From IMG/VR virus record IMGVR_UViG_3300018019_000438: DNA of 31,544 nt; one strand, given 5' to 3'. Positions 2,893-30,898 of this stretch are shown one piece after another (the first letter of the stretch is position 1; each line of letters starts with the position of its first letter). The notes beneath the pieces were generated by a model. It made no database searches. It saw only the letters and a program-made list of their open reading frames with translations, and had not been told where the DNA came from. Source of the stretch: a virus. The translations under genes and the position numbers were made by a program.

Positions 2893-3473
2893 GCATACTC
2901 CTCAAATTGAAAATTATCTGATTCCGGGGATGCTAACCATCGCTTTAGTGTTTGTGCCTTTCGGTCACGGTCAGACAAACACGCTTCTGAAAACTCTATG
3001 GGCCATTCAATCCCAATTTCAGGGTCATTCCAAAGAATGTTAGACTCCGCTGATGAGTTGTAAACGCTGGTGCATTTGTACTGAAGCTCTGCCACATCGG
3101 ATAAAACACAAAATCCGCGTGCAAAGCCAGCAGGAGCCCAAACTTGTTTTCGGTTCTCAGCGGATACTTCCAAACCCATCCACTGACCGAGAGTAGGAGA
3201 ACCTTTTCGGATATCCACTGCTACCAGAAAGACACTGCCTTGCGAAACCCGCATCAACTTACCCATAGGCGGTCCCCACTGAAAATGCAGACCACGAACT
3301 ACCCCTTTAATTGAACGTGAATGATTATCCTGAACAAAGCGAACCGGAATATCAAGGTCCCGAAGCCATTTCTCATGATAAGTTTCCATAAAGAAACCAC
3401 GACTATCCTGAAAAATGTCCGGTGTTAGAATGACAACATCAAGTACAGATGTAAATTCAACTTTAGCCTTCAT
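2889..3473 (-). CDS. rfbC: dTDP-4-dehydrorhamnose 3,5-epimerase (RmlC cupin)
   Basis: FQDSRGFFMETY, FVQDNHSRS..GVVRGLHFQ, GKLMRV..G.VFLVAVDIRKGSPT.GQW, WAPAGFARGFCVLSD, WNDP.IGIEWP. Confidence 0.93.
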   Translation of the reverse strand: MKAKVEFTSVLDVVILTPDIFQDSRGFFMETYHEKWLRDLDIPVRFVQDNHSRSIKGVVRGLHFQWGPPMGKLMRVSQGSVFLVAVDIRKGSPTLGQWMGLEVSAENRKQVWAPAGFARGFCVLSDVAELQYKCTSVYNSSAESNILWNDPEIGIEWPIEFSEACLSDRDRKAQTLKRWLASPESDNFQFEEYA

Positions 3474-3480
3474 AGTTTCC

Positions 3481-4113
3481 TCAAACTATCTGCTTGCATT
3501 TATTGATGAACGCCGCTTGTTGCACAGGTGTCCGACCTTGCCAAGCATGAAAAAATAGATTCCCATATGTGGTATTGTGGCCATATTTTCGGGCTCCTGA
3601 GTCCAAGTCCCATATCAGATTGTCGGAACAGGTGGGACGAATCATGTGAACGGAGTTGGGATCATCTTTTTCCCATGCGTAGGTTAATTCTTCTCCTGTA
3701 TCTCCTCGTTCAGTTGTAAAGAACGCTGGACTTCCCAAGGATACATACTTCTGTTTGGAGAATGCCATGCAAGCCGATGATACATAGATGTGCTGGTTGT
3801 TTTGAAGATGATTCGCCCGTTGGATGATGCCAGCCAGCCAACCTTGTTGAGCCGAATCGAAAAGATAAGGAAAGGCCACATCGCTTAGGGGAATACAATC
3901 CGTATCAAGAAAGATGATGATATCCGTCTCGCACATCTGTACGCATCTGCTCATCCCTATGGCATGGGGCTCGCCGCCAAAAGGCTGGAAGAACTGAGTA
4001 AAAGTCCATCCATCGGGCAGAAACTTTCGCACGATGCGATCTTGTTGATGAAGAACTTCTTCTCCCATGTTACCGTTGTGAATGGAAAATACACTAGCCA
4101 ATATCTGCTTCAT
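3481..4113 (-). CDS. GT-A fold glycosyltransferase
   Basis: IIIFLDTDCIPL DxD motif; start moved to MKQIL; lies in the glycan cassette. Confidence 0.7.
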   Translation of the reverse strand: MKQILASVFSIHNGNMGEEVLHQQDRIVRKFLPDGWTFTQFFQPFGGEPHAIGMSRCVQMCETDIIIFLDTDCIPLSDVAFPYLFDSAQQGWLAGIIQRANHLQNNQHIYVSSACMAFSKQKYVSLGSPAFFTTERGDTGEELTYAWEKDDPNSVHMIRPTCSDNLIWDLDSGARKYGHNTTYGNLFFHAWQGRTPVQQAAFINKCKQIV

Positions 4114-11355: not shown

Positions 11356-14002
11356 TTAGGCTGTTGCTGTTTCCGACAAAATACGTCGGAAGGGCAGGAA
11401 CGTGCCAGCGGCGGCAGGACGGGGAGTTACGACGAACTTAACAGGATTGTTACCCCAAATAACTTGGGGGATTGTGCATTTCTGACAATCTCACACAGTT
11501 GGATTCCTGTGTGCTCGGACTATTGCATCACCCCGAAGGGTGTCTTCTCGCTTAGTCTCTCACGGTGCTTTCGCTTCCGCCTCGTTGCCATTTCAGGGTT
11601 CGAGTCAATTAGAGAAGATTCTCATTCGCGGATTTCGCCACGATGAACCAATTTTACTTAGTTGTAACTAACCGCTCCACCTATTTCTCCGCCCGGGTCA
11701 AATGCACTCGGTGCGAATTCATAGATGTTTGCCTTGAAGTTGGATTCGTCCTTAATTTGTTATTCTTCGCAATCCGTCAACTAGCTTCTCTAGCTCTTCT
11801 AAAGAAGCATCCCGTTTCAAAACGTTGGCGCGTTGCGAGATGACCATCACATTTTCTTTGATATACCCTTTTTCAGGAATTCTTCGGTCAAGAGCAGGTG
11901 AATCGTCTTTGTGACGACCTGTTGCCACTTGTAAACGAATTCCCAAAAGCGGACATACCTCTGGAATAGTGATGTCATCAGGTGTGAGATCGAAAGGAAG
12001 ACCAAGCATCTTGGCACGGTGACGAGCCCGGCGAACCATATAAATCTTGTAACGGTCCCAGTCGGAAGAAACGCCCTTCCACCATTCTTTTCGATAATCT
12101 GATTTCGCTTTACGTAGTTCTGCATTCTCGGCATACTTCTCCCGAGCATGCTCCAGTATCTTGGCCCGATTGCGGGCATAATACTGACGAGCGTATTGCC
12201 GCTCTTGTTCTACTGTTGCAAAACCCATGTCTCACCCCTAACTCTGCATGTTACCATGCAGAACGGACTATATCATAACACCCAAACATTATACCACAAA
12301 TTCTGTAGTTTGTCAAGATGTTTCTCGCGTGTAGTCTCTACGGACTCTCTGCTTGCGCAGGTTGCCTCGGGATTGGCCTGAGGGGTATCAGGTGTTTCCC
12401 CGATATAGCGAGATTTTACGTACCCTGTGCCGTAACTTCATGAAACGGCAATGGTTAAGGAACGTCTTCAAAACCACCAAGAGCGATAGCGAACATCGTC
12501 TCGTCAGCAGTAATGTAGGTTTCCCAAGAAGACTTACCAGATGCGGGCAAGTTGGCAACCAACGGAACGTTGGTGCTCATAACGAAATCGATACCCGCTA
12601 CCGGGATGATTTCATTATCTTCTGCGAGGCCAGCTTCAATCCACTTCTGTCCTTCACGGGTGTACTTCTCGGTGTCGAGAACGCCGTTGTGAGTCAGGTC
12701 GTTAGCAACATCGTTAAGTATATAAGGTAATTTTTGTTTAGGATTTCTGCGTCACCGCAGGATCACTCTGCATGTCACCATGCAGTTCAGACTCTATCTT
12801 CATTCCATAAAATGGAGTGTTAAGCGTATTAGTCGTTGGGGATTCTTCGATTAGATGGCCGTGGTTCAGTGCTGATATTTTTTCTGCCAGCACCGCGCGC
12901 TTTTCTTGATTCCAACCAGTTCCCAATCTAACCCACTCAAGAGCGAGTTTAGCTTGTTCCTGCTTGATAATCATATACGGGATAACACCTAACAAAAACT
13001 TCTCTTTGTTTTTGCTGCCAGACAATTTCCACTGATATAAAAGTTTGGCCCGCAAAGAAGAAAAACCTCGTCCTTTGCGGTTGCTAACATCAGTCTGAAA
13101 TCGTCCACCAAAGTTGTGCAGTAGCCATTTGATGAGACGGAAATCTGTATTGCTAATTTTGATTCCCAATTCAAATCGCTCACCCGAACATCCGTCTGAG
13201 CGTTGACCACGGACAACGTAGATGCTTCCTTCACCATCTAAAATTCCGGCCACATACGGCCATGCGTTGTGATCCATCGAAGTCTTTCCTCCGTCTTGTC
13301 TTATTTCACTAAACATTGTATCACATATCTGATACTTTGTCAAGCTAAATGTAAGATATTAACGGATATAGCTTAATTTTGCATGCACCCTTGTTGATGC
13401 ATGATTCCACGCATTCTTCCACCGGCAAAAGGTCGTCCGTTCTTTCCGCGAATTGTAGCCACAGCCGTGTTAAGAACCGCACGGGTCACGTAGCTACCAT
13501 CAGAAAGCTGAACGCTTGCAGTTGGGTCCGTAGAAACAGCAGCATCAAAGCCTTGCTGAATCAACGTATCAACCACGAGAGCGCCTCGATACCCAAGCAT
13601 TTCGCTGAGTTGTTCGAGAGGCTTTCCAATATCCACAGCAAGAGCAAAGTCAGAAACGTTGACGTAATCAACGTACTGACCTAGCACTGCTTGGATGCTC
13701 GCTTCAGTTGGCACGATTGGTGTGCCCACGGTGCCTTCTACGGCAGTCGGGGGCGGGGTATTGATGGGTCCACCACCAATATCAATCGCGTTTGCTGAAA
13801 CGTTCGCAGTAAACGGAGCCAAGTTATACGTGTAAATTTGTGTCGTGCGACCTGCGTTCTTCGGAATCTGACGTTCTGCGGTCAGCCCTTGGAACCCAAG
13901 ATGCGCGAACAAAGCACGTACTGCCAAACGATCATAAAAGACCGCTTGGGTGCTTGGCAAAGTTGAGCCGATAACAAATGAAGCCTGTGAATTACTAGGC
14001 AT
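11356..14002 (-). CDS. Major capsid protein (N4-gp56-like family), four exons: 13397-14002, 12458-12727, 11660-11750, 11356-11441; 350 aa after splicing
   Basis: Exon 1 (202 aa) has STQAVFYDR, IPKNAGRT.Q, QYVDYVNVSD, LGYRGALVVD and ends GIMH. Joining gives GIMH|PYILND...GGFEDVP|DESNFK...VSYN-F-KFVVTPRP...ETATA*, in frame (606+270+91+86 nt). Follows portal and scaffold genes. Confidence 0.85.
11442..11659 (-). mobile_element. Group I intron 3 of the capsid gene (218 nt, no ORF)
   Basis: P1 exon AACU pairs with GGUU (U.G at the splice site); P3 UCUUCUC/GAGAAGA; P7 GAGACUA/UAGUCC; P9 hairpins; ends in G (CCUG) and restores the capsid frame. Confidence 0.82.
11752..12228 (-). CDS. Intron-encoded HNH-like homing endonuclease
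   Basis: CPLLGIRL...SPALDRRIPEKGYIKENVMVISQRANVLK beta-beta-alpha-Me-type motif. Confidence 0.8.
   Translation of the reverse strand: MGFATVEQERQYARQYYARNRAKILEHAREKYAENAELRKAKSDYRKEWWKGVSSDWDRYKIYMVRRARHRAKMLGLPFDLTPDDITIPEVCPLLGIRLQVATGRHKDDSPALDRRIPEKGYIKENVMVISQRANVLKRDASLEELEKLVDGLRRITN
12288..12316 (-). promoter_or_regulatory. sigma70-type promoter inside intron 2
   Basis: TTGACA-17 nt-TATAAT with TGTGG before the -10. Confidence 0.8.
12738..13277 (-). CDS. Single-motif LAGLIDADG homing endonuclease
   Basis: YVAGILDGEGSI motif, ISNTD..LI.WL...FGG, YQWKLS, IPYMIIKQEQAKL; start at MDHNAW with GGAGG SD. Confidence 0.9.
   Translation of the reverse strand: MDHNAWPYVAGILDGEGSIYVVRGQRSDGCSGERFELGIKISNTDFRLIKWLLHNFGGRFQTDVSNRKGRGFSSLRAKLLYQWKLSGSKNKEKFLLGVIPYMIIKQEQAKLALEWVRLGTGWNQEKRAVLAEKISALNHGHLIEESPTTNTLNTPFYGMKIESELHGDMQSDPAVTQKS
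13315..13343 (-). promoter_or_regulatory. sigma70-type promoter inside intron 1
   Basis: TTGACA-17 nt-TACAAT with TGTGA before the -10. Confidence 0.7.
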
Positions 14003-15494: not shown

Positions 15495-15866
15495 CTACTG
15501 TGATACTTTGTGCAAAAGCGGTCTTGGTACGGTGGCGGCTTCGTTTATTGTGTTATTGCAATAGTCTAAAACTATCCGTAAGTCTCGATGATCTTGCCAC
15601 GCTTTATCTTTTTTATCCTTATCCGTGCAGGCAAGCAAAATATCGGCCTTCTGTTGAATTTTCTCCTTGAGATCGCTGATAAACAGCAAATGATCTGGAT
15701 TATTTCGTAGATGCCCTATCCTCCGCGCTTTGTCGTATATGGTTTGCGCGGTGTCGTAATTTTCTTGAGAAGTTTCATATTCCACGCGGGGAATGTCTCG
15801 CCGCAGCAACGGATCATCGTCGGACACATCTATAACGAATCCGTCTGTAGTCATAACTTGAGCCAT
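15495..15866 (-). CDS. hypothetical phage protein
   Basis: 123 aa ORF coupled to the portal stop, with GGAGG SD. Confidence 0.75.
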   Translation of the reverse strand: MAQVMTTDGFVIDVSDDDPLLRRDIPRVEYETSQENYDTAQTIYDKARRIGHLRNNPDHLLFISDLKEKIQQKADILLACTDKDKKDKAWQDHRDLRIVLDYCNNTINEAATVPRPLLHKVSQ

Positions 15867-17977
15867 TACGTTCCTCCGAGCCCTTCGAATCCTGATACAA
15901 TGCCCGGAGTTTCTTCGCGTTCCGAGGCTCGCTCCACAGCTTTCGTGGCGATAATTTGTCCGGTATCTGCCTGACCCTTGGCATCAATCTCAGTAAGTTT
16001 TTGCTGATGCTCTTGAGCAGACAGGTCCTTATTTTGGGCGTGCATCTGAGCCAAGCGCGCACGAGTTGCTTGGGCATCCAACATCTTCGGATTCATCTGC
16101 GCAGCACGTTGCTGATCTTGCTGAGTCATCGGGATAATGATGTCTTCTGGTGTCTTCCAACCTGAGACTTCTTCCCAACGACGGCTATACTCAACCCAGT
16201 TGACCTTCATTTGAGCAGATGCCAATCCTTGCTGAACAGCCGGGGCTTCCAGCATCTGACCAAGCAATGGCAAAGACTGGCCCATCTTCTGTTTAGCTGC
16301 GATGTTTGAACCGGCCAACAAAGTAAATTCAATATCGTCATTGTTGCACATGTCGAGCGTAAGATCGCCGTCATGATTCTGTTCCATGGATGTCCACAAC
16401 GTCTTTCCCACGATCTTGCGTATAACGGCAGGATCAAGCCACATCCTGTCCATTTTCAGGAAAGAATAGAGAAGCGGAAGCAAGCACTGGTCACACACTA
16501 TATCCACAAAACTTTGTACGCGGGCGCTTGATGCTCCTGCCACGGCTCCCGCACCTGTACCAGAGCGCATACCTGTACTGCGTACACCACCCGGCATAGC
16601 ACCTTGAATCAACAGTTCATTCGCGCCCGTTGTCTTCTCGGCATCAGCCATAAGAACTTCTTCTTCCTGATATGCTTCAGACAAAACGGGTTGCTTCTCA
16701 ATGGCTTTCAAACTGTCCATGTCATCGACTTTGAATACCGCGCCCGGGTATTGCTTGATGGGTTGAGCGGCAATATTGGAACCTTTGCGAGCCATCCACA
16801 TGTTTTGAAGGTTCATGTGAACGTCATCCAAACGCAGGTTACGCAAACCTTGAATGTGTGTCTGGATTCCACCAATACGACGTGGAATACCAAAGGCGTA
16901 GAATGTGCCCGGTAGATCGTCCCAATAACAAGAAACAAACGGGATGACGCCTAGCGGGTTGCCTTCATTACGAATTACTTTTTTGCGCTGCAGAACCACG
17001 ATGACGTGGTCCTTTGTCCAGTGCTCAAGAACTTCCAGCTTGTGTTCCAGCGGGTCTTCAGACTCATCAAGATAGCGCGGAAGCGGGCGATGCCCCTGTG
17101 TCGGGTACGCCGTGCCTTCATTCTCCAAACCTGAACTCGGTGCTTGTTCGGCAGGAGGTGCTGCCAAAGCCTTCAAAGTCTTCTCGTCGGGAATATCGTA
17201 ACCTTCAAAATCCCGAAGTTTGTTCAAATCGCGGATCGTCAAATAGTCACGGTACACAACAAAGTCAGCCGCACGAATATCAGGTTCACGAAGACCCGGA
17301 CTAACCAAAAGATGGTTGATTTCGATGCGCTTAAAGAATGGTTGACTAACGCGGTCGGTTACATCGTACTCTTCCAATTCATCGGATTCTGCAGTATGCA
17401 GAAAGGTAGACTTGCCGCCCGGAACGGAAGACGGAATTTCCTTCGGCATAGCCGCGCGCTTGTAGACCGTGCGCTTACGATCAAAGGTTTCCCATCCAAA
17501 CTTACCCAATCCCGTGCCAAAAATTTCAGCGTCTTTTACTATTAGACGCATTTGAGCTTTCACATTCGCCTGACGCAATTGATATGACAGAACCGATTCC
17601 CAACCACGCGATACTTGTCGAGGTGTGCCTTCAGTCGGCTGAATGGCAAACGGAGTCATCTCTGGAAAGATAGCGGGCATAGCCTGATCCAGAATTGCCC
17701 GAACGTGCTGAGCGATTAGAGGGAAAGAATTACTTGAGCGCGGAACCAAAGTATCGCGCCAATAAGTCTGACGAACCGGAGCTTCGTACAAGCTCTTGGC
17801 AACACGCCATTCGCTCATCCATAAACGCGCCATCACGAACTTCTCGGCTCGCTGGGTATCCTGAATGACTAAGGAAAGTGCAGATTCATCAGTTTTTACT
17901 GCACCACTATCCAAACTGAAATCATCTATTCTTTGATTTAGCGGGGCGGCGGTAGTATTTGGCTGGGGTAACTGCAT
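15866..17977 (-). CDS. Portal protein (P22/N4-like)
   Basis: 703 aa directly after the terminase; WMSEW, IFGTGLGKFGW, IEINHLLVSPG, GEGNP-like NPLGVIPFV..YW, Q-rich helical C-terminus. Confidence 0.85.
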   Translation of the reverse strand: MQLPQPNTTAAPLNQRIDDFSLDSGAVKTDESALSLVIQDTQRAEKFVMARLWMSEWRVAKSLYEAPVRQTYWRDTLVPRSSNSFPLIAQHVRAILDQAMPAIFPEMTPFAIQPTEGTPRQVSRGWESVLSYQLRQANVKAQMRLIVKDAEIFGTGLGKFGWETFDRKRTVYKRAAMPKEIPSSVPGGKSTFLHTAESDELEEYDVTDRVSQPFFKRIEINHLLVSPGLREPDIRAADFVVYRDYLTIRDLNKLRDFEGYDIPDEKTLKALAAPPAEQAPSSGLENEGTAYPTQGHRPLPRYLDESEDPLEHKLEVLEHWTKDHVIVVLQRKKVIRNEGNPLGVIPFVSCYWDDLPGTFYAFGIPRRIGGIQTHIQGLRNLRLDDVHMNLQNMWMARKGSNIAAQPIKQYPGAVFKVDDMDSLKAIEKQPVLSEAYQEEEVLMADAEKTTGANELLIQGAMPGGVRSTGMRSGTGAGAVAGASSARVQSFVDIVCDQCLLPLLYSFLKMDRMWLDPAVIRKIVGKTLWTSMEQNHDGDLTLDMCNNDDIEFTLLAGSNIAAKQKMGQSLPLLGQMLEAPAVQQGLASAQMKVNWVEYSRRWEEVSGWKTPEDIIIPMTQQDQQRAAQMNPKMLDAQATRARLAQMHAQNKDLSAQEHQQKLTEIDAKGQADTGQIIATKAVERASEREETPGIVSGFEGLGGT

Positions 17978-17986
17978 TCCGTTTCC

Positions 17987-19777
17987 TTATCCTCGATATA
18001 GACTTGCAACATTAGTTGAATTCACCGCATCAATATCCGTGCTTTCACCTTCTCCTGCATGCGAGTCCGGTGCTTCGGGCGGAAGTTCAGGCTCCCATGT
18101 GAGAATGGGCCCGCTAGGTTTCAAACTCTCAATGGTCTTAGGAAAGATCAGCGGGCGATAGTATTGCCAAGCCTGCGCGATGCAATCAGGAGCATCGTCT
18201 TTACGGCGCTTGGCATCAAGCGTCCATTTTTCAAATTGAGAGCGGACATCATCAATGAACCCGACATTGGAGTTGATAAAGACATGTCCGTCTTTCATGG
18301 CCGATGCCAATACCGCGATACGGACATTCTTTGCATTCAATTCGTTGTTCGGTAATTCCCATGTGATAGACTTGAACGGTTTATCGTTTGGCTTGGCAGT
18401 TCTTCGTACAGCTTCATTGATCTGATCTTCCAGCCAACGGACGCCCATGGCGTCTTCGATGCTATGGCCGACAATGGGCCCGAAATATTCCGCTGTCCGA
18501 TACAACTGAACGATGGCGTTTGAAACATCAGTACCATTGTTGTAGTGTGCCAGAACAACCTGCACAACCCACATTCTCATCGTGCTGTTCTGAAATACCG
18601 CGATAATGCCACAGGAATAATCTGATTCACTTTTCTTGCGTCGGCCAGTAAATGCAGATGCTAAATCCCAGTGAACAACAACTGAACGGTCATGCATGGG
18701 AATTTGCAGAAGATCGTTTGGAGATGTGATCTGTCTCTTCAGAATTGCTTCTGTGAATGACTTTGGCGTCTCGTCCAAAGACGCATCAAGCAAATATTGC
18801 TTGTAGAAATCAGAACGATTCCGGCGATAGCGTTTGAATAAGAAGTTTGCATTCAGCTTCTCAGGCCAAGTAAGATCGACATCATCAGGAGTAAGTTGGC
18901 CGTTCTTCTCTCTCTTTATCCGTTCTTCTATTTCTTTTGGCGTTCCATCTTTACGGAGCGTCCATGCGGGCAAAACAAAATAAGAAACTGTCTCACGTCC
19001 AGATTTCTCTTTGTCTTCCGCGCCTTTTCGACAGATGTAAGCGGGTAAATCTTCTTCATGCCATTTGGTGCCCAAAAACATCCGATATCCGCCCGGCTCA
19101 ACTAGCTCGTCAGTATCATCGTATGTGCCGTGGGTTTTTTCGCAATTCTCTAAATTGGACGAATTGATTTCGTTTGTCGCGTCGTCCAAAAACACAAGTT
19201 CATAGTGGCCTCCAGCTTTTACAGACTCAAAGCTGGCAAGGGAGATGGTTGGGTCTCGAAGGTCTAGTTCAGGGTTTCGCTTTGGAGTTGTGAACTCTTC
19301 AAGTTTGATATCTGATTCTTCAATCGCCCATTCAGGAAACAAATGCCGAATAACTTGATTGGAAAAGAATGGCTTTCGAGCCATTGCAAGGATGCTCTTA
19401 GCTTTATCAATTTTTCCTGACATGATGAGAATACGAATGTCAGGAGAACACAAAATAACTTGAGTTAGAAAGGCCGCTCCAATTGTAGATTTGAGCATGC
19501 CTCGGGAAGCCAATACTACAAACTCATCCCGTTCATCCCATTCAGAAGAATCTTTGTGAGGATCAGGCTGAAGGAACGAGTCAATAATTTTTCCATGAAC
19601 CTTTTCCAGAAGTGTTGGAAACTTCTTGGAGTTTGCAGGACGCAAAACGCAGTTAACCAGAAAACGCAAATCAGTCTGGATTCGAATTTTCACGTTGTCT
19701 TGTTCTTCCTTAGACAACTTCTGCACATCGGGCAGTGTCAATCGGAAGTTCAAGTCACCGAGATTTGAGATGCCCAC
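17987..19777 (-). CDS. terL: Terminase large subunit
   Basis: Walker A-like LASRGMLKST, Walker B LVFLDD, LGTKWHEED, nuclease motifs HWDLAS and KDDAPD. Confidence 0.9.
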   Translation of the reverse strand: MGISNLGDLNFRLTLPDVQKLSKEEQDNVKIRIQTDLRFLVNCVLRPANSKKFPTLLEKVHGKIIDSFLQPDPHKDSSEWDERDEFVVLASRGMLKSTIGAAFLTQVILCSPDIRILIMSGKIDKAKSILAMARKPFFSNQVIRHLFPEWAIEESDIKLEEFTTPKRNPELDLRDPTISLASFESVKAGGHYELVFLDDATNEINSSNLENCEKTHGTYDDTDELVEPGGYRMFLGTKWHEEDLPAYICRKGAEDKEKSGRETVSYFVLPAWTLRKDGTPKEIEERIKREKNGQLTPDDVDLTWPEKLNANFLFKRYRRNRSDFYKQYLLDASLDETPKSFTEAILKRQITSPNDLLQIPMHDRSVVVHWDLASAFTGRRKKSESDYSCGIIAVFQNSTMRMWVVQVVLAHYNNGTDVSNAIVQLYRTAEYFGPIVGHSIEDAMGVRWLEDQINEAVRRTAKPNDKPFKSITWELPNNELNAKNVRIAVLASAMKDGHVFINSNVGFIDDVRSQFEKWTLDAKRRKDDAPDCIAQAWQYYRPLIFPKTIESLKPSGPILTWEPELPPEAPDSHAGEGESTDIDAVNSTNVASLYRG

Positions 19778-20554: not shown

Positions 20555-20989
20555 TTATTTACCGTTCTTTCTAAGATATTCTACTGCGGCCAATAAAATA
20601 CTCTCATTATCTTTTGCATGACCCAACAAGAAATTACACGTAGAACAAAGAATTCCACGAATAACAATCTCGCCTGTTGTAACTTCTGCAAAATGATCGT
20701 GGTCAACACACCATTTTTTGGCATCTGGAATGCCGCAAATAGCACAACACCTGTTTTGAGATGCTAAAATGCGCTCTTTTTCTTCCAAACTTATGCCATA
20801 TAATTTCTTATACGCATATCGTCTTTGATAGAGTGGGTCTTTCATAAGGCGGTCCTTATGATACCGCTTGTCGTAAACTTTCTTCTCTTCGACATGCGCC
20901 GCCTTCCACTCTTTAGACTTTTTAGAAGCATACACAGGATGAGCAGATTGCCACTTTTTATTATAAATGGCCTTCTCTTCCTTTGTCAT
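20555..20989 (-). CDS. Endonuclease VII-family homing endonuclease (free-standing)
   Basis: YGISLEE...QNRCCAICG...VDHDH...IRGILCSTCN..LG.AKD...AAVEYL. Confidence 0.88.
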   Translation of the reverse strand: MTKEEKAIYNKKWQSAHPVYASKKSKEWKAAHVEEKKVYDKRYHKDRLMKDPLYQRRYAYKKLYGISLEEKERILASQNRCCAICGIPDAKKWCVDHDHFAEVTTGEIVIRGILCSTCNFLLGHAKDNESILLAAVEYLRKNGK

Positions 20990-24685: not shown

Positions 24686-24850
24686 TTATTTTAGCGCGCG
24701 AGAAACTTTCGCCCCGCGACCGCAGTTATTGCACTCCCAGCCATGCAGGCCGTGAATCGTGCCCTTCTCACCTTTTGATTTTCCAGTGGGGGTTTTTGTT
24801 ACAGAACCTTGGCAGGCAGCACATGAATAGTTGTATCGCGTTGAATTCAT
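24686..24850 (-). CDS. small zinc-ribbon protein
   Basis: CAAC...CNNC, 54 aa from MNSTRY (ATGA overlap). Confidence 0.6.
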   Translation of the reverse strand: MNSTRYNYSCAACQGSVTKTPTGKSKGEKGTIHGLHGWECNNCGRGAKVSRALK

Positions 24851-25275
24851 TTCTTCTCCCCGAGATATTTTTCCAAATATGCTGCGGCCAATTTGCAAGT
24901 AACAGGATCATCCTGTAGAAGACCAAGAGCCATGTTGCATTTTCTATGAACTAATCCTCGATTCATTTCGGTAACATGGGAGTGATCTACAACCGCCTCC
25001 ATCCCTTTATCTTCCGAGAAAGGTTTCAAACATACTCCACAACAATTATTTTGAGCCGCGAGCATCGCAACAAACACTTCTGCGCTTATACCATATTTCC
25101 ACATTCTATAACGATCTGAATGATACCGTTTCTTTTCAGGACCGCCCATCAATCTTGCATATTTTAATCGGCCACAAACTCTACAAGAACGACGACGATG
25201 TTTATCCCAGCAAGTATTCTCAGGAGTAAATTCGTGCCCATGTTTACAATGAGTCTTCGTCCACTTATTTGCCAT
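24847..25275 (-). CDS. Endonuclease VII-family homing endonuclease with N-terminal THCKHGH..T..NT motif
   Basis: KYGIS...QNNCCGVC...VVDHSH...RGLVHRKCNMALG..DD; start moved to MANKW. Confidence 0.85.
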   Translation of the reverse strand: MANKWTKTHCKHGHEFTPENTCWDKHRRRSCRVCGRLKYARLMGGPEKKRYHSDRYRMWKYGISAEVFVAMLAAQNNCCGVCLKPFSEDKGMEAVVDHSHVTEMNRGLVHRKCNMALGLLQDDPVTCKLAAAYLEKYLGEKK

Positions 25276-26131
25276 TGCCGACTCGGGCAACATACTCACA
25301 GCAGGCGTTCGGATCAACCTTAATTCGGCCATCGGAAGTGCGCGGCTGCTTTGACTTCTTCAACATGTCATCCTGTCCGCAGGAATTATCCACAGATCGA
25401 AAAAATTCACAGTTAGCACAAGAGAATGGCCCCTTGTTCGCAGCGGGCTCGTATCCAGTTCCGGTCTCCCCTTGAACCGCAGATATGTCAATTTGTATGG
25501 AGTGATCGGATTCGGCTTCAGGATTAGACTTGAAAATCGGAATCGTGGTATACTCCGCGATCAGTGCAATGCCACCGGAGCTAATAATATCCGTCGTCTC
25601 GCCCAAATACTCATCGCTGTTCGCGCCGGTCTGCAGGTTCCACCAGTACATCACATTTGAAACGTGGGCAACAACCAAAACTTCGGGGTCTTCCGTGCTC
25701 TTTTCTTTTTCAATTATCTTTAGAAGGTCTTCGGCAAACTCGTGCTGACGATATTCAAACTCATTGATCGTTTCGCCATTTGGAAATCTTTTGTTCTTGT
25801 TGTCAAGAAATGGCTGAATAGGGTGATCTGCTTTGGATTGCCCTTTGAAATCGCCAACATTCAAAGGCAGAAGGCGATCATCAATTTCAATGAACTCGAC
25901 TCCAAGATACTCCGCGATAATAGCAGCAGTCAAGACTGCGCGTTGTAGAGGGGATGATATGATCTTTGAAAACGGCTGCTTCAGCTTCTGAAGAAACTTG
26001 CCTTCTTCATGAGCAGATCGAATACCATCTTCGTTGAGTTGGGCGTCAGGACCATCAGACCATCCGCGATAACGTCCCGATTCATTTAGGACAGTCTGAC
26101 CATGTCTTGCGATAAAAAAGAGACTGCGCAA
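25265..26131 (-). CDS. Histidine phosphatase (phosphoglycerate mutase family) with C-terminal Cys-rich domain
   Basis: IARHGQT, ISSPLQRA, FPNGET, VVAHVS; C-terminal CANC...C...CC; TTG start with AAGGA SD. Confidence 0.85.
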   Translation of the reverse strand: MRSLFFIARHGQTVLNESGRYRGWSDGPDAQLNEDGIRSAHEEGKFLQKLKQPFSKIISSPLQRAVLTAAIIAEYLGVEFIEIDDRLLPLNVGDFKGQSKADHPIQPFLDNKNKRFPNGETINEFEYRQHEFAEDLLKIIEKEKSTEDPEVLVVAHVSNVMYWWNLQTGANSDEYLGETTDIISSGGIALIAEYTTIPIFKSNPEAESDHSIQIDISAVQGETGTGYEPAANKGPFSCANCEFFRSVDNSCGQDDMLKKSKQPRTSDGRIKVDPNACCEYVARVGNGK

Positions 26132-26268: not shown

Positions 26269-26343
26269 TGGCAGGCAGTGAGAGATTCGAACTCCCAAGT
26301 TCCGTTTTGGAGACGGACAGTTTGCCGTTGAGCTTAACCGCCT
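26269..26343 (-). tRNA. tRNA-Trp(CCA)
   Basis: Cloverleaf, loop CTCCAAA, encoded CCA. Confidence 0.92.
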
Positions 26344-26464
26344 GTAGAAATTGTTCGCCGTGTTGCTCCCGGGTTCAATCGGGCCTCGGCGTGAAGCGCG
26401 GATTCCCTAGGACTACGCATCCCCTTGGCTTCCACTTATAGGGTGCGTACCGCTTGTACAAAAT

Positions 26465-26538
26465 TGGTGGACCGGCAGGGAATCAAACCCTGTTTTTTCG
26501 GGTGCAAACCGAACGTATTCTCAGCCTACTCCCAGCCC
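26465..26538 (-). tRNA. tRNA-Ala(TGC)
   Basis: Loop TTTGCAC, G3:U70 identity pair, CCA. Confidence 0.9.
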
Positions 26539-26542
26539 AATA

Positions 26543-26617
26543 TGGTTGCCTGTCTACGATTCGAACGTAGATTCACGGCTTCAGAGGCCGCTGTCCTTCC
26601 GGTTAAACGAACGGGCA
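26543..26617 (-). tRNA. tRNA-Gln(CTG)
   Basis: Loop CTCTGAA, U1:A72, CCA. Confidence 0.9.
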
Positions 26618-26693
26618 ATAGAAAATTGGCTGTCCCGATAGGGGCTTTACCCCACACTCGTTAGTCGCGGCATCAGCGAAGGCCAGTAGAAAA

Positions 26694-26785
26694 TGGAGGA
26701 AGGCCAGAGAATCGAACTCTGTCACCGGGTCTTAGCCGGTGGTACTGTTTTCAAGACAGTGAGGCACCATTGCCGACTGCCCTCC
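26694..26785 (-). tRNA. tRNA-Ser(TGA)
   Basis: Loop CTTGAAA, long variable arm, CCA; U73 and A8 are atypical. Confidence 0.85.
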
Positions 26786-26793
26786 ATCAAAAT

Positions 26794-27003
26794 TTATTCT
26801 TCGTCTACAATTATTACTGGATGCGGAAGATGAATCGGTTTTCCCAACAAGGCACCATGGGGTCCGACTTTCTGAAATAAATCGGCAGACCCGTCCTTGT
26901 ACACACACAAATGCCATCCTCGCGCTCTTTTGTAATTCAAAACAGGATAAACGTAAGTACCATCTTCCTGTTCTACAATCTCAATACAATGATTAGCAAT
27001 CAT
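26794..27003 (-). CDS. small hypothetical protein within the tRNA array
   Basis: 69 aa ORF with AAGGAG SD, fills the gap between two tRNAs. Confidence 0.65.
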   Translation of the reverse strand: MIANHCIEIVEQEDGTYVYPVLNYKRARGWHLCVYKDGSADLFQKVGPHGALLGKPIHLPHPVIIVDEE

Positions 27004-27053
27004 TTTACTCTCCTTTGCTCATCGAGCATGATATTCTAAGGCCCTACAAAAAA

Positions 27054-27145
27054 TGGTTGTCGATGTCGGTATTGAGCCGACCCGTTGCGCTAATCTGGCG
27101 CTTTCCGAAGTTTATAAGTCTTCGCTGCACCCTGTGCTATCGACA
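27054..27145 (-). tRNA. Atypical tRNA with UAU anticodon (Ile-type), long variable arm and 3-nt D-loop
   Basis: TGTCGAT/ATCGACA acceptor, GCAC-AGG-GTGC D arm, loop CTTATAA, GCGC/GCGC variable arm, T-loop CTCAATA, ACCA end. Confidence 0.7.
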
Positions 27146-27194
27146 GAAACTTTTCTTGTTCTACCAGTGAATCCGCGCGGTCTATCCGGCATTG

Positions 27195-27488
27195 TCAGTT
27201 TGCAGTATTATACTCTCCAATTTTTACTCGGTGTATAGTATTGCACCGCAGATGGGAAAATGCAATGTTATTCAAATCCCAAAACAACTCAGCAGAGCGG
27301 CCTTCCCATGGCTCTTTGTGCTCGATGCTCAACTCATCAACAGTTACTATTTCTTTGGCACACTTAAAGCATATATTTTCTTCAAGTCTGCAAAGCAAAT
27401 GAAAAAGAATAATCTTGCGAAGTCTTCCCGCAGCCGTACCAGGAGGCATACCTAATTGTGCTACTACTCTTTGTTTTCTTGCATTCAT
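27195..27488 (-). CDS. HNH endonuclease
   Basis: CFKC...LSIEHKEPW...WDLNNIAFSHLRCN; start moved to MNARKQ because the ORF-track start lies inside a tRNA. Confidence 0.8.
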   Translation of the reverse strand: MNARKQRVVAQLGMPPGTAAGRLRKIILFHLLCRLEENICFKCAKEIVTVDELSIEHKEPWEGRSAELFWDLNNIAFSHLRCNTIHRVKIGEYNTAN

Positions 27489-27521
27489 TATCGTAGACCT
27501 TTGGTCGTTGATTTTGAAAAA

Positions 27522-27595
27522 TGGTTTCCTTGGATGGATTCGAACCACCATAGCGCGGTAATCGGCCACGCGTATTGCCATTATACGACAAGGAA
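27522..27595 (-). tRNA. Atypical tRNA, anticodon GAT (Ile) with C33 and U37
   Basis: Perfect acceptor TTCCTTG/CAAGGAA, canonical D and T arms, loop CCGATTA, CCA. Confidence 0.75.
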
Positions 27596-27616
27596 ATTGA
27601 AAATTGTGATGCCTTT

Positions 27617-27873
27617 ACGGTGCCCGTAGCCCGGCTTCTGTTCTCACTTGCGTAAGTAGAAGTCATTCGTCTAAGCAGCAACCCGGCAGTCTTTATCGGT
27701 GGTCAGCCTCTGCCCTATTTGCCTTGCATCGGTGTGGAGTCGTTTCGGACAAGTGGATAGAGCAAGGCTTGCCGAACTCTTACCCGTGCGCTTTCGCGCC
27801 CCGCAGCTTCCACGGCACCTTGACCAGATGGCCGGAACTTCCTCGGCTTTCGCCGCGACTTCTTGTTCACCGT
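27617..27873 (-). ncRNA. rnpB: RNase P RNA (compact bacterial type A-like, no P18, reduced specificity domain)
   Basis: P1 ACGGUG/CACCGU, P2 GAAGUC/GACUUC, P3 GNRA hairpin, CR-I GAGGAAGUUCCGGC pairing with CR-V ACAGAAGCCGGGCU (P4), P5 CAUC/GAUG, P6 UGGUCA/UGACCA, GCAAGGCAAAUAG, L15 GGU, UAGACGAAUGA, P19 CUUAC-GCAA-GUGAG. Confidence 0.88.
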
Positions 27874-27879
27874 TAAGAA

Positions 27880-27954
27880 TGGAGGCTCTACACGGATTCA
27901 AACCGTGATAGCTGGTTTCGAAGACCAGTGCCCTGTTCGTTGGACGATAGAGCC
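27880..27954 (-). tRNA. tRNA-Arg(TCG)
   Basis: Loop CTTCGAA, cloverleaf, CCA. Confidence 0.9.
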
Positions 27955-28033
27955 ATAAAAAGAGGCGACGTTCGGTTCGCCAATCACACCACTGACTGTA
28001 TATACAGTCGCACAGGTGTCGTGCTTTGCAAAA

Positions 28034-28108
28034 TGGAGCGCCGTGAGGGAATTGAACCCCCGTCTGAACGTTCGTAGCGTTCTGTCCTGTCCGTTGAACG
28101 AACAGCGC
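28034..28108 (-). tRNA. tRNA-Arg(ACG)
   Basis: Loop CTACGAA, cloverleaf, CCA. Confidence 0.9.
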
Positions 28109-28109
28109 A

Positions 28110-28183
28110 TGGTAGACCGTGACGGATTCGAACCGCCATGACTTGTGTGTAGGACAAGCATTCTGCCGTTGAATTAACAGTCT
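28110..28183 (-). tRNA. tRNA-Val(TAC), C33
   Basis: Loop CCTACAC, cloverleaf, CCA. Confidence 0.85.
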
Positions 28184-28189
28184 ATAGAT

Positions 28190-28263
28190 TGGTGTGCCGC
28201 GAGTGAATCGAACACTCGTTCGTTGATTAAGAGTCAACTAGTCTGCCACTGACTTAGCAGCAC
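28190..28263 (-). tRNA. tRNA-Lys(CTT)
   Basis: Loop CTCTTAA, cloverleaf, CCA. Confidence 0.92.
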
Positions 28264-28268
28264 AAAAA

Positions 28269-28374
28269 TGGACGGCCTGACTGGAGTCGAACCAGCCTTA
28301 GTTCGTTTAGAAGACGAACGCCTATATCGGTCCCGTTTAGGAAACGGGTGCCTGTTCCGCTCGGCCACAGACCG
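28269..28374 (-). tRNA. 106-nt tRNA-Arg with two tandem anticodon arms (CCT and TCT)
   Basis: One acceptor, one D arm, one T arm, two 5-bp/7-nt hairpins CCCGT-TTCCTAA-ACGGG and TTCGT-CTTCTAA-ACGAA, CCA. Confidence 0.85.
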
Positions 28375-28383
28375 TTTGAAAAT

Positions 28384-28469
28384 TGGCGGATGAGGAGGGA
28401 TTCGAACTCTCACAACCTTTCGGTTGCCAGTTTAGCAAACTGGTGCGGCTACCGTTTCGCCACCCATCC
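28384..28469 (-). tRNA. tRNA-Ser(GCT)
   Basis: Loop TTGCTAA, long variable arm, G73, CCA. Confidence 0.92.
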
Positions 28470-28477
28470 GTTGAACT

Positions 28478-28553
28478 TGGTAGGGAAGGAGAGATTCAAA
28501 CTCTCGTCACTTGGCTTGAAGGGCCAGTATCTTCATCACTAGACCACTTCCCC
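28478..28553 (-). tRNA. tRNA-Glu(TTC), C33
   Basis: Loop CCTTCAA, CCA; 5' end overlaps the last codons of the HNH ORF. Confidence 0.85.
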
Positions 28554-28952
28554 GTTATTTTTCTGTCTGATATACGTGCGATTCGCATGACAGTTTGCAC
28601 AAACAACTTCGCACTTAGAAATCTCTTCTAAAATTCTCTTTATGCCAAAGCGCCATAACATTTGACCAAGATTCCCGGTTTTGATTCCACGCACGTGGTC
28701 AAATTGCATTATCCAGTATGGGTAAGAAATTCCACAATCCATACAAGGTTTGTTTTTGGCATCGCGAACTATTTCTACCCGTGCCTGTTTTCGAAGTTTT
28801 AGTCGGGCAATGATGCTGTCTTTGTTTTTCAGATAACAAACACGATTATATCCTTGTTGCTTTTGGTACTCGTTTTTACACTCGTGACAATAGGACCCGC
28901 CATGAGTGTCATTCTTTCCGTTATCTTTTCCGCACTTCGGGCACATCTTCAT
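28539..28952 (-). CDS. HNH endonuclease with N-terminal Zn finger
   Basis: CPKC..CHEC, KPCMDCG..YP.WIMQFDHVRG.K, EEISKCEVVCANCHANRT. Confidence 0.88.
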   Translation of the reverse strand: MKMCPKCGKDNGKNDTHGGSYCHECKNEYQKQQGYNRVCYLKNKDSIIARLKLRKQARVEIVRDAKNKPCMDCGISYPYWIMQFDHVRGIKTGNLGQMLWRFGIKRILEEISKCEVVCANCHANRTYIRQKNNGEVV

Positions 28953-29050
28953 TTTTCTCTCCACTATAGAGATGTCGGGGGTGATAGTGGCACCCCCAAC
29001 CTAGCGGTAATGGTCGCCACCCTTCGAAGGATCACTCCGATTCAGATTAC

Positions 29051-29079
29051 ATTCTACCACAAACTTGGCCGCTTGTCAA
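29051..29079 (-). promoter_or_regulatory. internal sigma70-type promoter of the tRNA array
   Basis: TTGACA-17 nt-TAGAAT with TGTGG before the -10. Confidence 0.8.
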
Positions 29080-29087
29080 CTGAAAAC

Positions 29088-29161
29088 TGGGGGCCGCAAG
29101 GAGAATCGAACTCCTGCGAGCAAGTTGAGAACCTGCCGTTCTTCCACTAAACTATGTGGCC
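29088..29161 (-). tRNA. tRNA-Glu(CTC)
   Basis: Loop TTCTCAA, CCA; C73 is atypical. Confidence 0.85.
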
Positions 29162-29269
29162 TCAAAATGAATTCGGAAACATTATGTGGAGTTTGCAAGC
29201 ACCACAACTTTGATGCTGTGTCCGCTCTCTTGGTTGCACCCAAAAGGACACGCTGCATGTTCCGAAAAT

Positions 29270-29344
29270 TGGTGGGCCACCAAGGACTTGGACCTTGACT
29301 CGTCGGCTTAAAAGGCCGCTGTGCTACCTTAACACTAGTAGCCC
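29270..29344 (-). tRNA. tRNA-Lys(TTT)
   Basis: Loop CTTTTAA, CCA; T-loop TCCAAGT (C55). Confidence 0.88.
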
Positions 29345-29349
29345 AAAAT

Positions 29350-29436
29350 TGGTCGCCAAGGTGGGGATCGGACCCACACGCTCTTTCGAGCCAATCGTTT
29401 TAAGTGATTGCTGTCTGCCAGTTCCATCACTTGGCG
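29350..29436 (-). tRNA. tRNA-Leu(TAA)
   Basis: Loop CTTAAAA, long variable arm GCTC-GAAA-GAGC, CCA; T-loop TCCGATC. Confidence 0.88.
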
Positions 29437-29440
29437 AAAT

Positions 29441-29518
29441 TGGTGCAAGCAGTGGGAGTCGAACCCACAAGACTCTAGGTTTGAGCTAGAGATGTCTGCC
29501 AAATTGCATCACACTTGC
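29441..29518 (-). tRNA. tRNA-Leu(CAA) with short variable region
   Basis: Loop CTCAAAC, Leu-type D arm, only about 5 nt of variable region, CCA. Confidence 0.85.
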
Positions 29519-29519
29519 A

Positions 29520-29595
29520 TGGTTGCCTGAAAAGGATTCGAACCTTTATCGGATGGATTCAAAGTCCACCATGTTCCCAGTTACACCATCGGGCA
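29520..29595 (-). tRNA. tRNA-Gln(TTG)
   Basis: Loop CTTTGAA, U1:A72, CCA. Confidence 0.9.
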
Positions 29596-29603
29596 ATTGA
29601 AAA

Positions 29604-29677
29604 TGGTCCCGTTCCGTGGAATTAAACCACGACTACCTGTGCTTCAAACAGGGGTCATATCGTTAGACCAAAACGGG
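29604..29677 (-). tRNA. tRNA-Phe(GAA)
   Basis: Loop TTGAAGC, cloverleaf, CCA. Confidence 0.87.
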
Positions 29678-29683
29678 ATAAAT

Positions 29684-29758
29684 TGGGGTGCAATCTCAGA
29701 TTCAAACTGAGCCTACCCGGTTCACAGCCGAGCGTGCTATCACTACACCAAAAGCACC
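29684..29758 (-). tRNA. tRNA-His(GTG)
   Basis: Loop CTGTGAA, encoded G-1:C73, CCA. Confidence 0.9.
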
Positions 29759-29884
29759 ATTGAATCCAAATTCAAGACGGCAGGAATGATTGCTTCCTTT
29801 TCGTGGGGCTGGCAACCGACCCGGATTATTCATCTTACCCTTTTGGGAGTAGATACGATGCCGGGCTCGCTTGAAAAATCAATA

Positions 29885-29961
29885 TGGCGAGGCTAGCGGG
29901 ATTCGAACCCGCGAAGTCTTCCGTGACGGGGAAGCGCGATAGGCCGCTACGCGATAACCTC
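29885..29961 (-). tRNA. tRNA-Asp(GTC), C33
   Basis: Loop CCGTCAC, G73, CCA. Confidence 0.88.
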
Positions 29962-29967
29962 ATAAAA

Positions 29968-30055
29968 TGGCTGGGGCAACAGGATTCGAACCTGTAATGA
30001 GCTTGCGCTCTGGATGGGTAACAGCCATCTGCTGTGCCGGTTGAGCCACACCCCA
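29968..30055 (-). tRNA. tRNA-Asn(GTT) with long variable arm
   Basis: Loop CTGTTAC, variable arm GAGC-GCAA-GCTC, G73, CCA. Confidence 0.87.
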
Positions 30056-30064
30056 GTAGAAAAT

Positions 30065-30143
30065 TGGTAGCGGAAATCGGATTTGAACCGATGATATCAT
30101 GGTTATGAGCCATGCGTTTTAGACCGGACTAAACTATTCCGCA
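30065..30143 (-). tRNA. tRNA-Met(CAT), initiator-like
   Basis: Loop CTCATAA, 1:72 mismatch, fMet-like T arm ATCGGTTCAAATCCGAT; only two G-C pairs at the anticodon stem tip, so elongator Met or Ile2 identity is not excluded. Confidence 0.85.
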
Positions 30144-30321
30144 TCAGACTGTATTCATCCAAGAGAACGTTTGCAACCAGTCATCCTTCTCTTGGACGCC
30201 CTTTCGGGTATTAGGTATCTCAGCATCAGACTTGCCGTGGCCACGACTTGGATGACTCGTCTGTTGCTGAAACGGCCATTTGCGAGGTGCAAAGCATCTC
30301 GTCCTGACCTAAGTATCAAAA

Positions 30322-30409
30322 TGGTGGATCGGGCACGACTCGAACGTGCGAAGCTCCGAAGGAGCAACTGGTTTACAGCCAGTGGCAATTGCCGCTATGC
30401 GACCAATCC
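30322..30409 (-). tRNA. tRNA-Tyr(GTA)
   Basis: Loop CTGTAAA, long variable arm with UUCG loop, CCA. Confidence 0.92.
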
Positions 30410-30415
30410 ATAAAA

Positions 30416-30489
30416 TGGAGGCGTGAGTTGGGATCGAACCAACGTTGGTTGTTTTGCAGACAACTGACTTGCCGCTTGTCGATCACGCC
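30416..30489 (-). tRNA. tRNA-Cys(GCA)
   Basis: Loop CTGCAAA, U73, CCA. Confidence 0.92.
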
Positions 30490-30595
30490 AAAATCAGGGC
30501 TGCGCTCTCTATAGTGAGCTATCAACGCCGAAGCGCCTAGCGGGTTTACACCGCCCCTCAAGCCGATTTGCTTCCACAGAATGGAAGACTTAATA

Positions 30596-30670
30596 TGGAG
30601 CCCTAGCAAGGTTTCGAACCTTGGACGCCCGCTTACAAGGCGGGAGTTTTGCCAACTAAACTACTCGGGC
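30596..30670 (-). tRNA. tRNA-Thr(TGT)
   Basis: Loop CTTGTAA, CCA. Confidence 0.92.
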
Positions 30671-30671
30671 A

Positions 30672-30745
30672 TGGAGCTAGATGTTGGAATTGAACCAACC
30701 TTTAACGCTTACCAAGCGTTCGTTCTCCCGATGAACTAATTCAGC
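30672..30745 (-). tRNA. tRNA-Thr(GGT)
   Basis: Loop TTGGTAA, CCA. Confidence 0.9.
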
Positions 30746-30823
30746 TTTGAAACTTTGCGGTTCGCTTGGAACCGCTGGTGGCTCTTCACTCCGCTTGCGC
30801 GGCGAAGCATAGCTCGCCAATTT

Positions 30824-30898
30824 TGGAGGTCAACTTGGGATTCGAACCCAAATAACCGCTTTACGAAAGCGGCGTAATGCCGGTTATACGAATCGACC
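30824..30898 (-). tRNA. tRNA-Thr(CGT)
   Basis: Loop TTCGTAA, CCA. Confidence 0.9.

Follow-up and report, generated by a model that had tools for sequence, protein, structure and literature searches.

A conserved family of putative phage tRNA-Arg genes with two complete anticodon arms

Every tRNA known to us carries one anticodon arm. In the stretch of DNA analysed here (the window, 31,544 nucleotides of IMG/VR virus record IMGVR_UViG_3300018019_000438), a tRNA array contains a 106-nt tRNA-like gene with two such arms, and the question raised by this locus is whether it represents a genuine gene and, if so, which of its two anticodons is presented for decoding. The window derives from an uncultured tailed phage. 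Its minus strand carries the genes for the portal (15866-17977) and the large terminase (17987-19777), a capsid region that includes a group I intron, and sugar and glycosyltransferase genes. The intron itself (12244-12453, minus strand, 64.1 bits with Rfam) splits the capsid gene region and has an ORF on either side (11752-12228 and 12738-13343); these ORFs are HNH and endonuclease VII-like.

Read from 28374 to 28269 on the minus strand, the gene possesses a 7-bp acceptor stem followed by U8 and G9, a D-arm, a T-arm, an encoded CCA and two anticodon arms, CCU first and UCU second, each of which is preceded by its own AGGC, a copy of the 3' strand of the D-stem. The unit consisting of AGGC, position 26 and an anticodon arm is referred to here as a module, and the coordinates of all parts are collected in Table 1. 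A preliminary description of this DNA had spelled out the arms letter by letter, and that layout matches the reverse complement of 28269-28374 exactly; its structural reading of two complete arms, each with its own 3' D-stem strand, is supported by the present analysis and strengthened by the homologues presented below.

Table 1. Positions of the dual-arm gene and its parts, of the tRNA array around it and of the homologues in other contigs
Feature	Position	Strand	Remarks
Whole dual-anticodon-arm tRNA-Arg gene	28269..28374	-	5' end 28374; CCA 28271-28269; sequence and Rfam, 44.2 bits
Acceptor stem 5' strand CGGTCTG	28368..28374	-	pairs with 28273-28279
D-stem 5' strand GCCG and D-loop	28354..28365	-	GCCG 28365-28362; D-loop AGCGGAAC 28361-28354; G18 G19 A20 present
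Module 1	28332..28353	-	AGGC 28353-28350; position 26 (A); arm 1 CCCGT TTCCTAA ACGGG; anticodon CCU 28341-28339
Linker between modules	28324..28331	-	ACCGATAT; 7-8 nt in the family; CC invariant, rest variable
Module 2	28302..28323	-	AGGC 28323-28320; position 26 (G); arm 2 TTCGT CTTCTAA ACGAA; anticodon UCU 28311-28309
Variable loop CTAAG, T-arm GCTGG TTCGACT CCAGT, acceptor 3' strand CAGGCCG, U73	28272..28301	-	
Surrounding tRNA array	26269..30898	-	26 ARAGORN calls, all with encoded CCA
Homologue	L031:1896-2000		
Homologue	L032:2051-2155		L033 has the same sequence
Homologue	L050:85-190		
Homologue	L065:1253-1359		
Homologue	L075:461-565	-	
Homologue	L097:1651-1756		
Homologue	L101:1253-1357		

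ARAGORN called no gene at 28269-28374 and left the stretch empty, and it called none of the eight full-length family members; Rfam with default filters also missed the gene. With permissive filters, the window gene reached 44.2 bits with the Rfam tRNA model (RF00005), whose gathering score is 29; the homologues score 41-53 bits. In the Rfam alignment the window gene is read as Arg(UCU), with arm 1 treated as a 33-nt insert in the D-loop. Deleting one module together with the linker in silico, from either side and in all eight members, left 76-77 nt that ARAGORN then called as tRNA-Arg(cct) or tRNA-Arg(tct), and for the window gene this bears out the claim that removal of 30 nt yields a normal 76-nt tRNA of either type. 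The hallmarks of a tRNA are present and conserved, namely the 7-bp acceptor stem, a T-arm with a TTCRANY loop, G18 G19 and the 3' CCA. The family departs from the four-helix cloverleaf of 70-95 nt with a single anticodon arm, having five covarying helices in 105-107 nt. Judged by comparison of its sequences, the element is a conserved and selected gene family overlooked by standard tRNA finders, and because such finders miss dual-arm genes, phage tRNA repertoires are under-counted.

An assembly artefact is excluded, as the exact 106 nt occur in three other assemblies from other samples. Two of these, L018 (Logan assembly) and L019 (ENA assembly), differ elsewhere from the window by 6 and 9 SNPs, respectively, and the third is JGI contig L074. 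The terminase protein of the window is unchanged on 19 contigs, and L018 and L019 are the two that extend to the array. Relatives were gathered from the contigs of terminase homologues and by one pattern scan of JGI metagenomes. The homologue search that the preliminary description had called for thereby produced seven diverged versions, all keeping the whole architecture, in uncultured phages from soil and peat. With the window gene they form a set of eight distinct sequences, some of them close kin (L032 with L101, and L050 with L097). Positions 1-3690 of JGI contig L065 form a perfect inverted duplication of a tRNA array, centred at about 1845; a foldback in assembly is its most likely origin, and the two dual-arm copies of this contig were therefore counted once. 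Where a terminase lies on the same contig, it is 64-70% identical to that of the window; the terminase tree places the window, L031, L032 and L097 in two well-supported clades at 68-70% identity to the window, and L101 (64%) forms a further row of the tree.

The family could be told apart from chance in pattern scans of public collections, where every true member had 5/5 arm 1 pairs and full tRNA context; chance matches had at most 3/5 arm 1 pairs, and tRNA context only in ordinary tRNAs preceded by CTAA. Megablast and blastn of the region against isolate phages (INPHARED) gave no match. In IMG/VR, a pattern of T-arm and acceptor found nothing, a loose two-loop pattern gave chance matches only, and the exact arm 1 pattern matched only ordinary tRNA-Arg(CCU) genes of unrelated phages. 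A two-loop pattern likewise gave chance matches only in GTDB genome contigs. When other dual-arm tRNAs (92-134 nt, acceptor-closed, with T-arm and CCA) were sought in the arrays under study, the Arg gene alone was recovered, the remaining candidates of that length being chance spans over neighbouring tRNAs.

Each of the eight members can be divided into 22 segments that correspond throughout the family. The 5' part runs from the acceptor 5' strand through U8 G9 and GCYG to a 7-8 nt D-loop with CGGA. In the middle, AGGC and a single base precede arm 1 (a 7-nt loop on a 5-bp stem), a linker of 7-8 nt follows, and ARGC and another single base precede arm 2. The 3' part comprises a variable loop of 5-6 nt, then the T-arm and the acceptor 3' strand, and finally the discriminator and CCA. 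Covariation was counted in cells (members multiplied by stem positions) over the eight members, with significance assessed against 5000 shuffles. Both anticodon arms were paired in 40/40 cells, with both sides varying at 5/5 positions in arm 1 and at 3/5 in arm 2, and none of the 5000 shuffles reached either result. The acceptor helix was paired in 55 of 56 cells with both sides varying at six of its seven positions (0/5000 shuffles), and the T stem in 40/40 cells with both sides varying at two of five (1/5000). Such complete pairing with compensatory changes upholds the earlier suggestion, made from the window gene, that both arms are under selection, and it runs against the possibility raised with it that a single arm is conserved in homologues.

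Throughout the family, neither loop departs from the pattern of an Arg anticodon loop (U33, YCU, A37 A38). Two sequences of the CCU loop occur in the eight members, TTCCTAA and CTCCTAA (YTCCTAA), against a single one of the UCU loop, CTTCTAA, with variable stems and linker around them. AGGC precedes arm 1 in 8/8 members and arm 2 in 7/8 (AAGC in L031), and the GCYG and CGGA motifs are invariant in all eight. The order of arms is CCU then UCU in six versions and is reversed in L032 and L101. This reversal involves whole arms rather than loop bases, arm 1 of L032 being identical to arm 2 of L065 and L075 at 17/17 bases. Given that the order can be reversed, the conserved property is the presence of both kinds of arm and not a fixed position for either.

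The surroundings of the gene bear on its role. In the window it is flanked by tRNA-Ser(gct) (28384-28469) and tRNA-Lys(ctt) (28190-28263), and the order of the slot is Ser(gct), X, Lys(ctt), Val(tac), Arg(acg) and Arg(tcg), with X being the dual-arm gene. The same slot is found in L031, L032, L065, L075, L097 and L101, with Arg(acg) and Arg(tcg) following wherever the contig extends there. A separate Arg(tct) or Arg(cct) was seen in none of the dual-arm loci, an absence that is not proof because some of the arrays are truncated where the contig or locus ends. L030, whose terminase is 75% identical to that of the window and nested beside it in the tree, is without a dual-arm gene and carries ordinary Arg(tct) and Arg(cct) genes directly upstream of Lys(ctt), at the place of the dual-arm gene in other loci. 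In L093 (64% terminase identity) one ordinary Arg(tct) occupies the slot between Ser(gct) and Lys(ctt), and in L011-L013 (57%) Arg(tct) lies elsewhere in arrays of different order. The Arg(tct) of L093 and the Arg(tct) and Arg(cct) of L030 were considered as single-arm ancestors in the slot and rejected, since their bodies are unrelated to that of the dual-arm gene, indicating that they are replacements. The pattern of occupancy says that the dual-arm gene would stand in for AGR tRNAs.

Several other features of these arrays deserve description. HNH and endonuclease VII family nuclease genes lie in or beside the array of the window (27195-27581, 28539-28964, 24847-25332 and 20555-20989, all on the minus strand), and the fast exchange of tRNA genes between relatives is probably due to them. 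Inside the array lies a reduced gene for a bacterial RNase P RNA of type A (27612-27874, minus strand), scoring 74.7 bits against a gathering score of 100; copies are found at L032:1360-1617 and 2665-2932, L031:2577-2950, L050:652-937 and L097:2249-2526, mostly between Arg(tcg) and Ile(gat), with a length of about 260-290 nt in most loci and 374 nt in L031, and one of the two L032 copies reaches 114.4 bits. Directly downstream of the array, a gene of the histidine-phosphatase superfamily (branch 1; 25265-26131, minus strand) occupies the same position in L030, L031, L032, L093, L097 and L101, and a link to tRNA metabolism is possible. The arrays also include class-II-like tRNAs with long variable arms for class I amino acids, namely Asn(gtt) of 88 nt, Ile(tat) of 90-94 nt and Pro(tgg) of 88-89 nt (window 29968-30055, minus strand; L032:3020-3113; L031:3447-3536; L030:909-998; L031:554-642; L097:742-829).

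The body of the dual-arm gene is found elsewhere in ordinary form. IMG/VR contains phage tRNA-Arg(YCU) genes (L102-L105) that share its D-arm (GCCG AACGGAYA AGGC) but have a single anticodon arm; they are class I, with 5-nt variable loops, indicating that the dual-arm body is a common class I tRNA-Arg body in which the module is present twice. A class II, tRNA-Ser-like origin had been considered from the D-arm (GCCG...AGGC, with G13-A22) and was rejected, as the class I phage tRNA-Arg(YCU) genes share this D-arm and the Ser tRNAs of the phage do not. The idea that the linker is a copy of the start of the acceptor 3' strand (CAC, CAG, ACT) was also rejected, because in L097 the linker is ACCACTA and the acceptor strand ACGGGCG.

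Bacterial ArgRS recognises A20, C35, U36 or G36, and position 73 of its tRNA, with A73 or G73 as the discriminator in E. coli. A20 (after G18 G19), C35 and U36 are present for both arms in either D-stem register, with YCU in both loops in 8/8 members. The discriminator is U73 in seven members and C73 in L101 and thus differs from the A73 or G73 of E. coli. U73 is also found in the ordinary tRNA-Arg(tcg) and tRNA-Arg(acg) of the window and in the Arg tRNAs of L030 and L093, making it the local norm for these phages. From these elements, charging of the dual-arm tRNA with arginine is a reasonable expectation. Long variable arms redirect charging in nev-tRNAs and allo-tRNAs, and charging of the dual-arm tRNA by another synthetase via its extra arm may occur. 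The tRNA-Arg(tcg) of the window (27880-27954, minus strand) has a D-loop, AACGAACA, without a GG dinucleotide, which is unusual given its otherwise good score.

How could two anticodons be used in one such molecule? One GCC strand facing two AGGC copies makes two registers of the D-stem possible. We propose that a single arginine tRNA body shows either anticodon through a switch between these registers and that both AGG and AGA are decoded, a reading to which we assign somewhat less than an even chance. In register A, GCC would pair with the first AGGC, arm 1 would serve as the anticodon arm, and module 2 would loop out between positions 43 and 44. In register B, GCC would pair with the second AGGC, arm 2 would become the anticodon arm followed by a normal variable loop of 5-6 nt, and module 1 would bulge from the D-loop between positions 21 and 22. 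Position 21 adjoins positions 46-48 in the known fold of tRNA, and the exit points of the idle arm would adjoin in the folded molecule on the side of the class II extra arm. The invariant CC of the linker could pair with the GG of whichever AGGC copy is idle in either register. The molecule would carry arginine, and the ribosome would use the arm currently in register. The fuller form of this proposal, which we hold more tentatively, is a natural bistable tRNA, in which two conformers of one charged Arg species would decode AGG and AGA, respectively, while the idle arm would rest at the variable-arm site of class II tRNAs.

We reasoned that if a single register alone were used, one of the two AGGC copies would be free to drift like the linker, and their retention is an argument for both registers. 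Since the D-stem and the CC:GG pairs are invariant in the eight members, covariation supports neither register. By nearest-neighbour energies without the CC:GG pairs, register A is favoured in every member by 2.5-5.7 kcal/mol, and with these pairs added the gap becomes 1.0-2.2 kcal/mol in 7/8 members and 4.2 kcal/mol in L031, in models that ignore tertiary contacts, modifications and proteins. The AAGC of L031 would weaken register B there. A constrained ensemble puts the probability of register B at 0-0.15. Register B is thus predicted to be an accessible minority state, with the switch plausible. We know of no tRNA with a hairpin looped out of its D-loop that works in translation. The earlier view that the molecule can fold as either Arg(CCU) or Arg(UCU) is partly supported, both AGGC copies being retained and the register B fold being a predicted minority state.

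The main competing explanation, which we regard as less likely but serious, is that one arm decodes, namely arm 1 in the canonical position of the dominant fold, with the other as an accessory arm in the variable region. The nearest-neighbour energies and the constrained ensemble agree with it in favouring the first AGGC in the D-stem, as do the MFE folds of four of the seven members folded, which show the five-helix form with the first AGGC. Furthermore, the same phages tolerate extra variable-region arms in tRNA-Asn, tRNA-Ile(UAU) and tRNA-Pro. However, a single decoding arm leaves unexplained the conservation of the second AGGC (7/8), as well as the fact that the spare loop is a perfect Arg loop of the sister isoacceptor. 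With the reversed order of L032 and L101, it would also entail a switch of the decoding anticodon between CCU and UCU in loci where no other AGR tRNA is present. If the decoding anticodon is CCU, the commoner AGA codon (52 against 10 AGG among the 410 Arg codons of the window's genes) would be left without a phage tRNA, although relatives always carry UCU. The variable arm of class II tRNAs has a short, non-conserved loop and begins 1-2 nt past the anticodon stem. By contrast, arm 2 begins 12-13 nt past arm 1, and the single-arm tRNAs with the same D-arm are class I. As to what an accessory arm would do, it may be a decoy or shield against host nucleases cutting Arg anticodon loops, and phage tRNAs do counter anticodon nucleases (PMC10264068, PMC12409363); alternatively, it may be a handle for ArgRS or modification enzymes, or could redirect charging.

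Decoding by both arms, the reading that we prefer, is favoured at the level of sequence by the swapped arm order combined with the apparent replacement of separate AGR tRNAs. That AGA and AGG both occur in the window's genes, at the counts given above, also speaks for it. Among the three functions that the preliminary description had offered (a switching tRNA, an alternatively processed precursor and a nuclease decoy), both-arm decoding is the one that these two observations favour, and processing has gained no support.

A role outside translation is improbable in our estimation. In such a scenario the transcript would be a tRNA-shaped sponge whose two Arg anticodon stem-loops titrate a host nuclease that targets tRNA-Arg, or some other tRNA-binding factor. 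Both loops are conserved as sequence, as a mimic would require, and tRNA-targeting defences and the phage tRNAs that counter them are established (PMC10264068, PMC12409363). However, everything needed by a charged tRNA has been kept, including the covarying 7-bp acceptor stem, U73, the encoded CCA, the T-loop, G18 G19 and A20, and the gene occupies the slot of ordinary AGR tRNAs in loci with no other AGR decoder.

More improbable still is a precursor from which either 30-nt module is excised and the ends rejoined, so that one gene would give two ordinary 76-nt tRNAs. Removal of either module does leave a canonical tRNA-Arg in 8/8 members, and tRNA production from shared pieces has been described in Archaea, for example in tri-split tRNAs (PMC4033280). 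Against it, no Rfam intron family matches 28200-28450 at E values up to 10, and a group I intron would need far more than the 30 nt of the extra segment. A scan of 30 ORFs of the window revealed neither an RNA ligase nor a kinase-phosphatase, the ORFs within the array being HNH nucleases. To our knowledge, the tRNA splicing endonuclease of archaea and eukaryotes is absent from bacteria. Finally, a dead scar in which two tRNA fragments were fused by recombination or homing-endonuclease traffic is hardly credible despite the HNH endonuclease genes within the array and the fast tRNA gene turnover seen in L030 and L093, with their unrelated Arg tRNAs in or beside the slot, because the gene is kept down to 64% terminase identity, its helices show compensatory changes with essentially no broken pairs, and its acceptor 5' and 3' strands covary as those of one molecule and not of two joined fragments, ruling out a pseudogene.

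Our literature search turned up no natural tRNA molecule that bears two anticodon arms; in one chloroplast paper, the term second anticodon arm is applied speculatively to the variable arm of tRNA-Ser. A conserved natural tRNA of this kind would widen the known structural limits of tRNA, and its fifth arm raises the question of how ArgRS, EF-Tu, modification enzymes and the ribosome would handle it. Compared with ordinary class I tRNA-Arg(CCU) and tRNA-Arg(UCU) (RF00005), the gene is alike in its 7-bp acceptor stem, U8, GCCG/AGGC D-arm and G18 G19 A20, and in the 5-bp anticodon stem with a 7-nt loop (U33, YCU, A37), the 5-6 nt variable loop, the T-arm and CCA. It is unlike them in having five helices instead of four, a doubled module and two different anticodons per molecule. 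If the register switch is true, it would be the first known RNA conformational switch that changes the codon specificity of a tRNA, and it would provide a design for synthetic biology.

Class II tRNAs, allo-tRNAs and the class-II-like nev-tRNAs, whose anticodons are unexpected (PMC3333845), resemble the dual-arm gene in that its dominant predicted fold places arm 2 between the anticodon arm and the T-arm. By contrast with class II, its extra arm lies 12-13 nt off, has its own copy of the D-stem strand and carries a conserved 7-nt Arg anticodon loop, and the gene does not qualify as a class II tRNA. The tri-split tRNAs of Caldivirga maquilingensis (PMC4033280) are similar in that one shared portion serves two isoacceptors differing at the wobble base. 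They are, however, assembled from separate gene pieces by trans-splicing into two four-arm tRNAs, whereas the dual-arm gene would give one transcript in which no splicing signal was seen. Mirror mitochondrial tRNAs (bioRxiv 10.1101/2025.11.12.688142) also derive two decoders from one locus, from opposite strands, whereas one strand and one molecule hold both anticodons of the dual-arm gene. Phage anti-nuclease tRNAs (PMC10264068; PARIS AriB, PMC12409363) are likewise genes of phage arrays with an unusual anticodon region. Those known carry point changes in a single anticodon loop, whereas the dual-arm gene has a second arm, and if that arm is a decoy, it would represent a new kind of phage counter-measure against tRNA-cutting defences.
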